A DNA stretch of 24,626 nt from Candidatus Hodarchaeota archaeon (GTDB lineage Archaea > Asgardarchaeota > Heimdallarchaeia > Hodarchaeales > Hodarchaeaceae). Below are positions 4,085-7,461 of this stretch, piece after piece. The notes beneath the pieces are model-generated. The model worked only from the letters and a program-made list of their open reading frames with translations, was not told the DNA's origin and searched no databases. The stretch's first letter is position 1; each line of letters starts with the position of its first letter. Both the position numbers and the translations under genes were made by a program. Location: NCBI GenBank assembly GCA_029856365.1, contig JAHQWW010000054.1, positions 1-24,626 of the forward strand. Direction: 5' to 3'.

Positions 4085-5395
4085 TTATTCAAGCTCATTA
4101 GCGATGTATTTCTGGTATCCTAATAAGTCAAGTAAGCCATGTCCAGAAAGATTGAAGATAATGGATAGTTCTTCATCCTTGTGTTCTCTTGCGATATCGA
4201 TTACTGCTACAATGGCGTGAGAAGATTCGGGTGCTGGAATAATTCCTTCACTTTTTGTAAATATTTCTGCAGCTTCAAATGCTGTCTGTTGAGTATACTT
4301 ATAGGGGGTGACATGACCTGTATTGATCAACACTGACAAGCTAGGGGCAACACCGTGATATCTTAAACCTCCTGCATGAATAGGTGGTGGTATATAATCA
4401 GAACCTAATGTATACATTTTCAATAAAGGGGTCATATTCGCAGTATCGCCGAAATCATATCGATAATCTCCATCAGACATTTTTGACGCAGCAGTGGATT
4501 CTGCTGCGACCGCTTGCATTTCATATCCATTTCTTAACTTTTCACGGATAAATGGATAAGCTAAACCTGCAAAATTCGAACCTCCTCCCACACACCCCAC
4601 TACAAAATCAGGGAAATCATTTTCTGCCATTCGAAATTGATTAATAGCCTCAAGACCAATAACTGTTTGATGAAGAAGAACATGGTTTAGCACGGAACCT
4701 AAAGAGTACTTTGTCTGTTCGTCTTGAAGAGCTAATGTTATTGCCTCACTGATTGCGATACCTAAGCTGCCAGGATGTCGTGGATCTGAGTTTAGGAGTT
4801 TCTTACCAAACTCTGTTTTCGATGAGGGTGATGGGTAGACTTTTGCCCCATACAACTCCATTATGGTTCTTCTATGGGGTTTTTGATCATAGCTCGCTCT
4901 GACCATCATAACTTGGCAATTCAGATCCAAGAGTTGACTAGAGTAAGCTAAAGCGCTTCCCCATTGACCAGCGCCAGTTTCTGTTGTTAAAGTCTCTGTT
5001 CCTTCCTTTGCGTTGTAGTATGCTTGTGCAATAGCAGTATTCACTTTGTGTGAGCCAGTAGGAGATCTTTCACCTTCATATTTGTAATAAATTCTCACTT
5101 TAGTCTTTAGAAATTCTTCCAGGCTGTTAGCCCTGATTAGAGGTGAGGGTCGAATATCTTGTAACATTTCCCTAATTGCTTCTGGAATTGCTATGTCAGA
5201 TTCCTTAGCAATCTCTTGTTTAATCAGCTCTTTAGCGAATAGTACTTCTAAATCTTTGGGATTCAACGGTTCGTTTGTCGCTGGTGAAAGAGGTGGGGGG
5301 AAGGGTTTGGGTAGATCAGGAAGAATGTTACACCATTTTTTAGGTAATTCATTTTCGTCTAACTCGAACCTTTTACGTTTTCGCATTTTTTTCAC
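4085..5395 (-). CDS. trpB2: Tryptophan synthase beta chain 2 (TrpB2, stand-alone PLP enzyme)
   Basis: SPTGSHKVN (PLP lysine), [68 protein letters not shown] and the N-terminal W.NI.PDLP are TrpB2-type. Start is GTG 5395 or ATG 5386 (preceded by GAGTGA). Confidence 0.97.
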
Positions 5396-5446
5396 TCATT
5401 TCTGTGTTCTTTTTTGACAAGTTATTGACAACCGAAAAAATGAGTG
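5393..5446 (-). promoter_or_regulatory. Putative RBS/start-sequestering hairpin in the trpB2 leader
   Basis: mRNA CACUCAUUU (5446-5438) is the perfect complement of AAAUGAGUG (5401-5393), which contains GAGUG(A) and the GUG start. The 5' arm includes a U6 tract. Confidence 0.6.
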
Positions 5447-5468
5447 GAAATACACTTTATTGAACATA

Positions 5469-5529
5469 TAGAAGCTCTAAAGGTCTTCAAGTATGTGAGG
5501 GTGTCAAAAGATACCTTAATAGAGCCCTA
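5469..5529 (-). promoter_or_regulatory. Putative attenuator hairpin starting at the leader-peptide stop codon
   Basis: mRNA UAGGGCUCUAUUAAGGUAUCUU (5529-5508) pairs imperfectly with AAGACCUUUAGAGCUUCUA (5487-5469). Confidence 0.55.
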
Positions 5530-5643
5530 AAACCAGTGCCACCAGCGCCAGCAGGTTACAAGATAGAATATGATGAGCGCTGATAATTTGATCTTAAAAG
5601 AAGAGAATATGTTAGAATGGCCTTTCTGATTCGTAATTTTCAA
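5527..5643 (-). CDS. Putative Trp-rich leader peptide (TrpL-like), MKITNQKGHSNIFSSFKIKLSALIIFYLVTCWRWWHWF
   Basis: Minus strand ACC TGC TGG CGC TGG TGG CAC TGG TTT TAG (5556-5527). Frame open back to 5760. Candidate starts are TTG 5643, GTG 5682 and GTG 5703; there is no ATG. Stop lies ~130 nt upstream of trpB2 on the same strand. Confidence 0.7.
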   Translation of the reverse strand: MKITNQKGHSNIFSSFKIKLSALIIFYLVTCWRWWHWF

Positions 5644-5772
5644 AAAAACAATAGCAGTTTCAAGAGCTGGGGTTAGATTCACTAGTAGAAGAGGTGAATA
5701 CACGTTCTTCTGTGTTATTGCCAGTCCCGGAACATACCAACCACTAATCTTTTCAAGATGTCAAAAACTTGC

Positions 5773-5792
5773 AGAGCAAATCCTTTTGCTCT
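5773..5792. promoter_or_regulatory. Perfect inverted repeat AGAGCAAA-tcct-TTTGCTCT, candidate operator
   Basis: 8-bp arms with a 4-nt spacer in the trpB2/purH divergent region, just downstream of a minus-strand TATA-like GAAAATAATAAAA (~5808-5796). Confidence 0.4.
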
Positions 5793-5958
5793 ATCTTTTA
5801 TTATTTTCTATCAATGAACTAATTATTTTTTGCGAACAAATTTGATTTCTTGTCAAATAATTTATTTATAAACATAAGAAAGGGATAAAAAGAATCGTAT
5901 GTTCTTAAAAGAACCTTAAAAAGCTTTAATGTTTCATCTAGTTTAGTGGTGCACCCTA

Positions 5959-7461
5959 TTGAAAAGAAATCAAGGATTAATTAGCGTATTTGATAAAACT
6001 GGAATAGTAAATTTCTGTAAAAAAGTATCATCAAGATTTTTATTTATTAGTACAGGTAAAACTGCTAAAATTCTTAAAGCTGCTAATATTCCAGTTAAAA
6101 CTGTTGCTAGTCATACAGGGTATCCAGAGATACTAGGTGGCCGTGTTAAAACCCTACATCCAGAAATTTTTGGAGGGATTCTTGGAACGATTGATTATTC
6201 ATCAGAAATGGAAGAAATGGGGGTTCAACCTTTTGGCCTAGTAGTTGTAAATCTCTATCCATTCCAACAAATTGTCTCATATCCTCATAACTTAGTAAAA
6301 GCCATGGAAAATATTGATATTGGTGGTGTAACTCTTCTTCGAGCTGCTGCCAAGAACTTTCGTGAAGTTATTGTCATTTGTAGTCCTAATGATTATAACT
6401 CCGTTGGCGACGCAATTGCAGGGGATAAAGTTTCTCTAGATTTACGTAAGGAATTAGCAAAGAAAGTATTTCGTTACACTGCTAACTATGATACTGTAAT
6501 CAGTAGATATTTTGTAGAAATCACAAATGATTTTTTTCCTCCTACTCTTGTTTTAAGTTTTGAAAATCCTCAGGATTTGCGATACGGTGAAAATTGGCAT
6601 CAAGAGGCAAAATACTATTTACAAGCGAATAAGAACCCTTTCTACAGACAATTACATGGCAAGAAGGTCTCTTTAAATAATTTAGTAGATTTTTGCGCAA
6701 CGATAGGGCTTTTTTCAGAGCAAGAAGAGCCTGCTTGTGCTATTATTAAACACACGAGTCCGTGTGGTTTTGCATGTGCAAATGACATTGAAACTGCTTT
6801 TGGTCATGCGTTAGCAACTGATGAACTTTCAGCTTTCGGTTCAGCGATGGGATTTAATCGGCCTATTACAGAGAGTTTGGCCAATAAACTCAATGCAATG
6901 TTTATAGATGCTATTATTGCTCCAGAATATGAAAAGAAAGCCTTTGAAATTCTCACGAGAAAAGAGAAAATAATTCTTTGTGTATTTAATGAGTATGAAA
7001 TACCCAGATATTCAATTCGATTTGTACCTAATGGTCTCCTAGTTCAACCTACTGATACTCGTATTATATCTGAAGATGATCTTACTGTTGTTTCAAAACG
7101 AAAGCCAACTCCTCAAGAAGTGAAAGATCTCCTTTTTGCATGGAATGTTGTAAAATACGTGAAATCTAATGCAGCTGTTGTTAGTATTGGCAGGAAGACT
7201 CTTGGAATTGGAATGGGACAACCATCGAGAATAAAAGCAGTTAAATTTGCTTTAAACCATGCTAATGACAGATCACAAGGTGCCGTTTTAGCATCAGATT
7301 CATTCTTCCCATTTAGAGACTCAGTCGACGCTGCTGGAGAAAAAGGTATCAGGGCAATAATCGCTTCTGGGGGATCAATACGCGATAAAGAAGTAATTGA
7401 AGCAGCTGATGAATTTGACATAGCAATGATCTGGACAGGAATCCGATGTTTTCGGCATTAA
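5959..7461 (+). CDS. purH: Bifunctional AICAR formyltransferase / IMP cyclohydrolase
   Basis: LISVFDKTG, TGYPEILGGRVKTLHP, VVNLYPF, ENIDIGGVTLLRAAAKN, LRYGENWHQ, IIKHTSPCG, VKSNA, ASDSFFPFRD, GGSIRD, TGIRCFRH. Confidence 0.97.
   Translation: MKRNQGLISVFDKTGIVNFCKKVSSRFLFISTGKTAKILKAANIPVKTVASHTGYPEILGGRVKTLHPEIFGGILGTIDYSSEMEEMGVQPFGLVVVNLYPFQQIVSYPHNLVKAMENIDIGGVTLLRAAAKNFREVIVICSPNDYNSVGDAIAGDKVSLDLRKELAKKVFRYTANYDTVISRYFVEITNDFFPPTLVLSFENPQDLRYGENWHQEAKYYLQANKNPFYRQLHGKKVSLNNLVDFCATIGLFSEQEEPACAIIKHTSPCGFACANDIETAFGHALATDELSAFGSAMGFNRPITESLANKLNAMFIDAIIAPEYEKKAFEILTRKEKIILCVFNEYEIPRYSIRFVPNGLLVQPTDTRIISEDDLTVVSKRKPTPQEVKDLLFAWNVVKYVKSNAAVVSIGRKTLGIGMGQPSRIKAVKFALNHANDRSQGAVLASDSFFPFRDSVDAAGEKGIRAIIASGGSIRDKEVIEAADEFDIAMIWTGIRCFRH

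Follow-up and report, generated by a model that had tools for sequence, protein, structure and literature searches.

The trpB2 locus and its host

In this study, we analyzed a 24,626-nt stretch of DNA (hereafter, the window) in which trpB2, the proposed regulated gene, encodes a stand-alone TrpB-like PLP enzyme on the minus strand (4085–5386, with its ATG at 5386). The product is of the TrpB2 type (NF009057, 652.6 bits against a cut-off of 366; TIGR01415, 628.6 bits). The gene has a ribosome-binding site, GAGTGA, at 5397–5392, which together with the start codon ATG (5386–5384) occupies 5384–5397. On the other side of the leader, purH is encoded divergently from 5959, and an Lrp/AsnC gene is located 3 kb away. 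The neighboring genes vary between loci (purH here, an acetyltransferase in L185), so that what is conserved is the leader together with trpB2.

The initial annotation of this DNA had tied the novelty of its proposal to an archaeal host. The host is an archaeon of the Asgard order Hodarchaeales, not a bacterium, and the nearest loci are found in metagenome-assembled genomes (MAGs) of Hodarchaeota, Heimdallarchaeota, and Promethearchaeota. TrpB2 proteins with 75–93% identity come from Candidatus Hodarchaeota archaeon, Promethearchaeota archaeon, and Candidatus Heimdallarchaeota archaeon bin6 (CP070695.1). The host genome (4.24 Mb, 35% GC, 84% complete) also has genes for aRF1 and a GTPase of the Ras family.

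TrpB2 presumably converts indole and serine to Trp. Searches of the host genome (84% complete) with the Pfam models of TrpA, TrpC, and TrpE gave no match, and TrpA and TrpE were absent from five congeners (94–99% complete) by the same approach, for which 14 of 14 control genomes scored. The genus apparently cannot synthesize Trp de novo and, because trpA and trpE are missing from it, TrpB2 is probably its sole Trp route, through indole salvage. The failure to find trpA and trpE in six genomes (84–99% complete) makes a Trp-responsive control of trpB2 physiologically sensible, as an organism without a source of indole-3-glycerol phosphate of its own would profit from tying this enzyme to its Trp-tRNA supply. 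Two TrpB2 paralogs are kept in the genus and the leader is present at one of them only; the element occurs in one copy per genome, solely with this trpB2.

A Trp-codon cluster upstream of trpB2

On the minus strand, positions 5553–5527 read TGC TGG CGC TGG TGG CAC TGG TTT TAG, which translates as C-W-R-W-W-H-W-F-stop. The four TGG codons of this cluster (5530–5553) are located at 5550–5548, 5544–5542, 5541–5539, and 5535–5533, and positions 5549–5540 double as the 3' arm of a predicted helix, H1. The TAG stop codon (5527–5529) is separated from the trpB2 ATG by 140 nt. The initial annotation had read these codons as the end of a Trp-sensing upstream ORF, and the four TGG codons and the TAG are exactly where it placed them. 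Its statement that the ORF contains no other Trp holds from GTG 5703 onward; upstream of this GTG, the frame carries one additional Trp codon (...SGWYV...).

At least four Trp within seven codons were found at 39 places in the 8.49 million six-frame codons of the genome. A stricter filter demanded three Trp, consecutive or separated by at most one residue, followed by a stop no more than 10 codons away and not located in a long ORF; it left four places genome-wide. When an intergenic cluster was sought that has a long ORF (by crude gene calling) on its own strand no more than 500 nt downstream, the trpB2 leader alone combined an open frame before the cluster with a long ORF close behind it. 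Another of the four, a WWW triplet on contig C78, precedes a zinc-ribbon gene, and there a stop codon comes before the triplet. Given this rarity, its standing as the sole intergenic cluster with an open frame and a downstream ORF, and its recurrence at orthologous loci (see below), the Trp cluster before trpB2 is not a product of chance.

Leaders of other amino acids were also sought in the host genome, and this noisy scan yielded no convincing example. A His run precedes an aminotransferase that is not HisC and lacks a start codon, and Cys runs before aRF1, an alcohol dehydrogenase, and a rubrerythrin were unconvincing.

Conservation at orthologous loci

We collected 13 distinct leaders (L001, L002, L003, L028, L004, L107, L097, L110, L155, L005, L006, L010, and L009) from Hodarchaeales genomes and metagenomes in which the trpB2 orthologs have at least 56% identity. 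A Trp cluster with a nearby stop codon is located 112–169 nt before the ATG of every such ortholog in the genus, and the conservation at a similar distance that a Trp-sensing leader was expected to show is thus present in all 13. Three to four TGG codons fall within 4–6 codons in 12 of the 13 leaders, and two are present in L009. The stop follows the last Trp codon after 0–3 codons, again in 12 of the 13, and after 8 codons in L006. It is TAG, TGA, or TAA and its position differs by lineage, so that the stop has been maintained independently in each lineage. The cluster variants are CWRWWHWF, SWRWWHWL, SWRWWHCL, HWWHW, RWRWWQK, FWWHWWHSL, TWWHWWHYP, FWWHGWHS..., SWRWWHEK, and GRWWHGR.

The cluster was not found at approximately 150 other TrpB2 loci of bacteria and other archaea, with two bacterial exceptions that carry classic short WWWW leader peptides. 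In a different family of the same class (L011), a compact 27-codon ORF led by ATG and ending in FWWHWF-stop is located before its trpB2, which suggests that the principle is not confined to one genus. Motif matches in two other families (G041 and G047) are both inside unrelated coding genes.

The long frame is kept open while its peptide drifts

The Trp cluster and TAG terminate a long leader ORF, which we call frame A (5527–5760, minus strand). Its length in the window is 77 codons from stop to stop and 58 codons from GTG 5703. Frame A is free of stop codons over 72–111 codons in all 13 leaders. In the interval that runs from the conserved 5' block GGACTGGC to the Trp cluster, it has no stop in any leader, and the other two sense frames contain 2–8 stops per sequence, at 19–29 and 24–25 distinct positions, respectively. 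That 43 distinct stops should all avoid frame A has a probability of (2/3)^43, or ~3e-8, if stops fall evenly among the frames. GGACTGGC and the first Trp codon are 174, 177, 183, 195, or 204 nt apart, all of which are multiples of 3. All three antisense frames contain stops, which speaks against antisense coding, and a plus-strand frame reading P-P-A-P is short and lacks a start codon.

The amino acids of frame A are otherwise hardly constrained, and the peptide is close to neutral in its evolution. Substitutions in close pairs are spread evenly over the three codon positions ([10,12,13], [9,7,3], and [15,13,10]), and dN/dS in the interior of the frame is 0.3–1.1; in the L010/L009 pair, it is 0.98, compared with 0.10 for trpB2 of the same genomes. 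The dN/dS values thus gave no sign of purifying selection on the amino acids of frame A, third-position changes were not in excess, and the ORF region is no better conserved than the flanking non-coding DNA. This pattern fits a frame that is read by ribosomes and encodes no functional protein. With its openness, its length changes in steps of three, its end in Trp codons and a stop, and its drift in sequence, frame A looks like a regulatory leader ORF; neither a functional protein nor an untranslated motif would be expected to combine these features. The Trp-sensing upstream ORF proposed by the initial annotation gains from this comparison, since a frame kept open while its peptide drifts is what a sensor read by ribosomes would leave behind.

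Start codons and an upstream mini-uORF

The start of the ORF had been called uncertain from the outset, and the alignment agrees, as no start codon is conserved in frame A across the 13 leaders. In the window, the in-frame candidates are GTG 5703, GTG 5682, and TTG 5643, with no other canonical ones. Five leaders (the L097 group, L107, and L005) have an ATG or TTG at position 25–32 of the predicted transcript, and seven have a GTG or TTG at position 70–113. L006 has no ATG, GTG, or TTG in frame A downstream of the predicted transcription start, and the ATG annotated in its relatives falls between the predicted TATA box and that start.

The sole universal ATG that is preceded by a Shine–Dalgarno (SD)-like sequence opens the +1 frame, not frame A. 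It begins a mini-uORF, ATG TTC CGG GAC TGG CAA TAA (M-F-R-D-W-Q-stop; 5715–5735, minus strand), which contains the invariant GGACTGGC (5727–5720). The ATG is invariant in all 13 leaders, at transcript position 38 (51 in L010 and L009). The stop codon keeps its position in 12 of the 13 printed sequences and in 10 of the 13 aligned ones, and is missing in the L107–L109 lineage. The consensus is six codons, M-F/Y-x-D-W-x-stop, and one genome shows a TAA to TAG and a TTC to TTT change. An SD-like GTGGT is located 4 nt upstream of the ATG (GUGG(U/A)U across the leaders), and the 16S rRNA 3' end of a congener, ...GGAUCACCUCCU, can pair with GUGGU. The mini-uORF is a candidate for translation, and ribosomes may enter there and reinitiate in frame A. 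A programmed frameshift from the mini-uORF into the long frame was also considered, and no slippery sequence was seen on inspection. Because GGACTGGC is invariant even at the synonymous sites of both frames, some constraint must act there at the nucleotide level.

A predicted promoter and a folded leader RNA

A conserved block with two invariant A's, AATAAAAGA (consensus TTAAAAGA; 5794–5802, minus strand), resembles a TATA box. In the alignment of leaders, an invariant GCAGG follows 28 nt downstream, after an unconserved spacer. Archaeal TATA boxes and initiators show such spacing. The block is probably the promoter, which would place the transcription start at ~5772–5770.

The most conspicuous structural element is P0, a predicted long-range helix of ~20 bp between the first 25 nt of the predicted transcript and a segment 19–45 nt before the trpB2 ATG, identified by duplex search, folding, and covariation. 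Its 5' strand is at 5750–5772, at the predicted 5' end of the transcript, and its 3' strand, TTTTCGGTTGTCAATAACTTGT, is at 5417–5438 and ends ~30 nt before the ATG (both minus strand); a T-run at 5440–5435 is part of the helix. When the 5' 25 nt were matched against the entire leader, this homologous site before the ribosome-binding site was the best duplex partner in all 13 cases (dG -13 to -26 kcal/mol), and single-sequence minimum-energy folding, carried out on 11 leaders, recovered P0 in 10. Compensatory variants include CAAGUU:AACUUG, CAGGUU:AACCUG, CAGAUC:GAUCUG, GUUGGG:CUCAAC, and AUUUACC:GGUGAAU. In a plain MAFFT alignment, 80.7% of the P0 cells are paired, compared with 36–50% when the partner is slid by 1–3 columns. 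Nine of the 20 pairs change on both sides, and the covariation score was reached by none of 500 shuffles. This covariation shows that structural selection acts on a single RNA comprising the upstream block, the Trp cluster, and the ribosome-binding region of trpB2, and it argues against a transcription start located only downstream of 5530. The Trp codons are thus inside one folded 5' leader, with a predicted length of ~385–390 nt.

Within this leader, the 5' arm of H1, TATCAGCGCT (5576–5585, minus strand), pairs with the first half of the Trp cluster. The H1 cells are paired in 83.8% of cases, compared with 32–60% after sliding, and one pair changes from C-G to U-A in five sequences; the duplex z-scores range from +0.2 to -3.7. 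We have moderate confidence in this predicted helix. A candidate local hairpin, P1 (CAGAAGA ... TCTTCT; 5687–5712, minus strand), was noticed by eye just past the mini-uORF stop. Matching purine and pyrimidine arms can be seen in most lineages (CCAGAAG/CTTCTGG, GGAGA/TCTCC, and GCGGAAGAG/CTCTTCTCGC), and their register shifts in the alignment.

The region downstream of the leader stop was inspected for a terminator. A hairpin that begins at the stop codon, H2 (5469–5529, minus strand), occurs in the minimum-energy folds of each lineage. Compared with shuffled sequences, the 80 nt after the stop have z-scores of +1.6 to -4.2, with a mean of ~-0.8, and are not more stable in most lineages, so that H2 is a weak prediction and does not stand out as a terminator. 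No conserved hairpin with a U-run follows the stop, and alifold predicted no terminator or antiterminator in five close leaders. The bacterial style of attenuation by a terminator and an antiterminator is therefore not supported for these leaders. An anti-SD segment at 5446–5438 pairs with the trpB2 SD in the window (-13.6 kcal/mol). This pairing, H3, is weak or displaced elsewhere, so that no conserved anti-SD was found across the lineages and H3 is not supported beyond this lineage.

Several other structures were rejected. A helix between the W3-H-W4 codons and CGGTTGTCA is present in the five closest leaders only, shows no compensatory change, and overlaps P0. P0 does not contain a bulge-helix-bulge splice motif, as its internal loops are 1x1 and 2x1 rather than 3-nt bulges 4 bp apart. 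No Rfam family matched the window at the gathering threshold, and the region 5350–5990 gave only spurious hits (E ≥0.3). Four sub-threshold C/D-box hits on the opposite strand at 5558–5638 were discarded, since the C box is absent in a relative with 93% identity.

Interpretation of the leader and alternative explanations

We consider it somewhat better than an even bet that the trpB2 5' leader is a folded RNA containing a translated, Trp-sensing leader ORF. Among the alternatives, an untranslated riboregulator fares best. The TGG-rich block, made of UGGUGGCAC units, and GGACUGGC would bind a protein, uncharged tRNA-Trp, or Trp itself, and the open frame would be incidental; in the tRNA form, the RNA would act like a T-box whose UGGN base-pairs with the terminal NCCA. 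P0 and H1 show that this RNA clearly has structure, GGACTGGC is invariant even at synonymous sites, and no start codon is conserved. The CGC and CAC codons between the TGG codons point to constraint at the nucleotide level, which would be expected for a protein- or tRNA-binding motif too, and GGUGGCAC resembles what we take to be the T-box core, GGUGGNAC. This explanation nevertheless leaves the stop-free frame (P ~3e-8) unaccounted for, together with the independently kept in-frame TAG, TGA, and TAA stops and the multiple-of-3 spacing, and no Rfam family, T-box included, was matched even at E values up to 10. We regard it as unlikely.

A small protein of ~60–90 aa with a Trp-rich C-terminus, co-expressed with TrpB2 as a partner subunit, a membrane peptide, or a RiPP-type precursor, would also explain why the frame is kept open. 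Conserved parts of the peptide include an N-terminal G-x-x-V-x-G-L-A and a C-terminal W-W-H, and one NCBI annotation agrees with it: a profile of the 13 peptides retrieved two matches among 5.8 billion proteins, one of which is annotated as a hypothetical protein of 90 aa in a Hodarchaeales MAG. Both matches belong to the L006 lineage, however, and neither has a Pfam domain. Those "N-terminal" residues that are conserved fall on RNA elements, namely the GGACTGGC block and the mini-uORF, the tail varies in character from hydrophobic to acidic (L028), and no modifying enzyme is a conserved neighbor. Together with a dN/dS near 1, evenly spread substitutions over codon positions, and the lack of a conserved start, these features make a functional protein quite improbable.

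A DNA operator, in which 9-bp repeats (TGGTGGCAC) bind a TrpY-like or Lrp-like factor at a second promoter before trpB2, can draw on the direct repeat with its 9-bp period, AT-rich TATA-like strings between the cluster and trpB2, and the Lrp/AsnC gene 3 kb away, but we give it very little credence, as it explains neither the stop-free frame and its stop codon nor the compensatory changes in P0 that join a far upstream segment and the trpB2 ribosome-binding site on one RNA, and the candidate internal TATA strings are unconserved.

Comparison with known regulatory systems

The Hodarchaeales leader shares several features with bacterial trp attenuators, such as E. coli trpL, the rhizobial and actinobacterial leaders, and the Rfam Trp_leader family. 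In both, Trp codons are clustered before the stop of an ORF, the peptide is otherwise unconstrained, and the Trp codons are within an RNA helix; both are in the 5' leader of a Trp-biosynthesis transcript, as indicated here by the identity of trpB2 and the covariation of P0. The differences are considerable. The host is an archaeon, and the ORF has 50–90 codons compared with 14–30 in the bacterial leaders. The Hodarchaeales leader has no conserved start codon, neither a terminator hairpin with a U-tract nor an antiterminator was found in it, and it does not match Rfam Trp_leader. The 20-bp closing helix from the 5' end to the ribosome-binding region, in turn, is seen in the Hodarchaeales leader only. 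We did not assign the leader to the trp attenuator family because the search for a terminator and antiterminator failed and no Rfam match was obtained.

Other Trp-responsive systems serve the same purpose, the control of Trp-synthesis genes. TrpY of Methanothermobacter represses by binding DNA, the targets of TRAP are (G/U)AG repeats, and T-box leaders recognize tRNA and are not themselves translated; an open frame that ends in Trp codons is predicted by none of the three. Regulatory uORFs that encode short peptides include TnaC of E. coli and, in eukaryotes, the MAGDIS hexapeptide of AMD1, the arginine attenuator peptide (AAP) of CPA1, and the uORFs of GCN4. The Hodarchaeales leader likewise has an SD-led hexapeptide uORF at the 5' end, with further ORF sequence before the gene. 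In contrast to these examples, conservation of the mini-uORF may be at the nucleotide level, and arrest or reinitiation is here only a candidate process.

The ermC and cat leaders act by translational attenuation through stalled ribosomes. A related arrangement occurs in the poly-Cys leaderless sORFs of mycobacteria, where stalled ribosomes prevent an mRNA fold from masking the ribosome-binding site downstream (bioRxiv 10.1101/834739). As in those sORFs, the Hodarchaeales leader has a run of codons for one amino acid in a 5' ORF, and we think that translational attenuation of this kind is the most likely type of output, since formation of P0 requires that transcription of the entire leader be complete. 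The stall site adjoins the sequestering helix in the poly-Cys, ermC, and cat systems, whereas here 112–169 nt separate the expected stall from the start codon and a search for a conserved anti-SD gave none.

Proposed mechanism

The leader is probably an archaeal variant of leader-peptide control, and the path of its output is a guess. The model that follows is inferred with regard to translation of the leader, the place where transcription begins, the sign of the regulation, and each step by which the signal is passed on. Transcription would start ~26 nt after the TATA-like box, near 5772. Ribosomes would load close to the 5' end, either at the mini-uORF with its SD-like sequence or, depending on the lineage, in frame A at an AUG or UUG (positions 25–32) or a GUG or UUG (70–113 nt), and read a long frame that is constrained only to stay open and to end in W-x-W-W-x-W and a stop. 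When charged tRNA-Trp is scarce, a ribosome would pause on the Trp codons. The pause would be relayed through RNA structure, as the Trp codons are within H1 and the whole leader is closed by P0, which would tie the region beside the start of the leader ORF to the segment abutting the trpB2 ribosome-binding site. Paused ribosomes would hold H1 open, and a queue stacking behind them would occupy the 5' part of the leader and block the closure of P0. The leader would thereby be remodeled, and trpB2 would be translated more, or its mRNA stabilized, when Trp is short. We favor such a post-transcriptional output since P0 would form only once the full leader is transcribed and no conserved hairpin with a U-run is present. 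The ribosome queue would account for the length of the ORF, its freedom of sequence, and the conservation of its length. A weakness of the model is that some of the predicted pairings, when read simply, would give the opposite regulatory sign.

A more specific and rather doubtful version assigns separate roles to the hexapeptide uORF (M-F-x-D-W-x) and to the long ORF as a "ruler": the queue behind the stalled ribosome would reach the 5' end, open the P0 clamp, and expose the trpB2 ribosome-binding site. If true, this would be the first control of the leader-peptide type in Archaea, and a terminator-free one, with a mechanism that stands between attenuation as known from bacteria and the uORF control of eukaryotes. 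Any such link to eukaryotes is speculative.

Implications

Amino-acid sensing by ribosome pausing on a leader ORF is a textbook mechanism in bacteria and, to our knowledge, has not been described in Archaea. Full-text literature searches on archaeal leader-peptide attenuation, archaeal uORFs, TrpB2 regulation, and tryptophan in Hodarchaeales yielded no account of such an element; an archaeal Ribo-seq study reported uORFs in general terms only. Hodarchaeales is the order proposed to be closest to eukaryotes, and a conserved example from it would show translation-coupled cis-regulation in this lineage.

The trpB2 leader would provide an object that can be mutated in tests of how ribosomes start on SD-poor leaders, whether transcription and translation are coupled, and how uORF control originated in Asgard archaea. 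With regard to physiology, the genus, which seemingly lacks de novo Trp synthesis, seems to tune its indole-salvage enzyme to the supply of Trp.

Elements within and around the trpB2 leaders

The leader upstream of trpB2 in the window contains, on the minus strand at 5715–5735, a mini-uORF, an ATG-led ORF of six codons in the +1 frame relative to frame A (the long stop-free leader ORF, 5527–5760). It would encode the conserved hexapeptide M-F/Y-x-D-W-x-stop, in which Asp-Trp is invariant, and is preceded by an SD-like GUGGU located 4 nt upstream. The hexapeptide could be a second sensor, an arrest peptide, or a mere nucleotide motif. The block GTTCNNGGGACT occurs at ~5730–5720 and again at ~5670–5660 (minus strand), and both copies read V-P/L-G-L in frame A. 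This direct repeat, with a spacing of ~57–60 nt, is likewise present in the Hodarchaeales leaders L028 and L003, and its recurrence hints at an old internal duplication within the leader. On the plus strand, 5558–5638 carries ATGATGA and two CTGA boxes, and four overlapping sub-threshold Rfam matches to C/D-box sno/sRNA families (E = 0.3–2.2) fall in this interval. These matches are probably spurious because the C box is not conserved among close relatives.

L003 and L028 are two diverged leader and trpB2 copies in one MAG (G012, contigs C395 and C73), whose TrpB2 proteins show 87% and 86% identity to that of the window. In one of them, the Trp cluster is interrupted by an in-frame TGA and reads HWWHW-stop-HWF-stop. 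The copies represent either two strains binned together or a duplication.

In L011, from another family of the same class, an ATG-led compact ORF of 27 codons lies 231 nt upstream of the aligned start of trpB2 and ends in FWWHWF-stop. A further ATG, preceded by AGGAGG and located ~62 nt beyond the compact ORF, lengthens the N-terminus of TrpB2. An anti-SD-like CCUCC lies 4 nt 3' of the leader stop, and the folding is ambiguous. Among bacterial loci, a Spirochaetes MAG (JALXDB010000407.1) has a short ORF ending in DWWWWTILP-stop ~200 nt upstream of trpB2, and a metagenomic locus (Ga0190359_1003049) has one ending in MKIKIKYIKFDWWWWTENP-stop ~264 nt upstream of a bacterial trpB2; both are likely classic Trp leader peptides of stand-alone trpB2 genes.

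Gene content of the genus

The 16S rRNA match in the congener G007 (C9:1695–3919) is 2225 nt long, compared with a model of 1478 positions; the gene therefore holds a large insertion or intron. Neither TrpA nor TrpE was found in the window genome (G000) or its congeners G001, G007, G009, G011, and G019 (84–99% complete), and TrpC was not found in G000. Two TrpB2 paralogues are nevertheless retained. Members of the genus are probably auxotrophic for Trp and rely on indole salvage.
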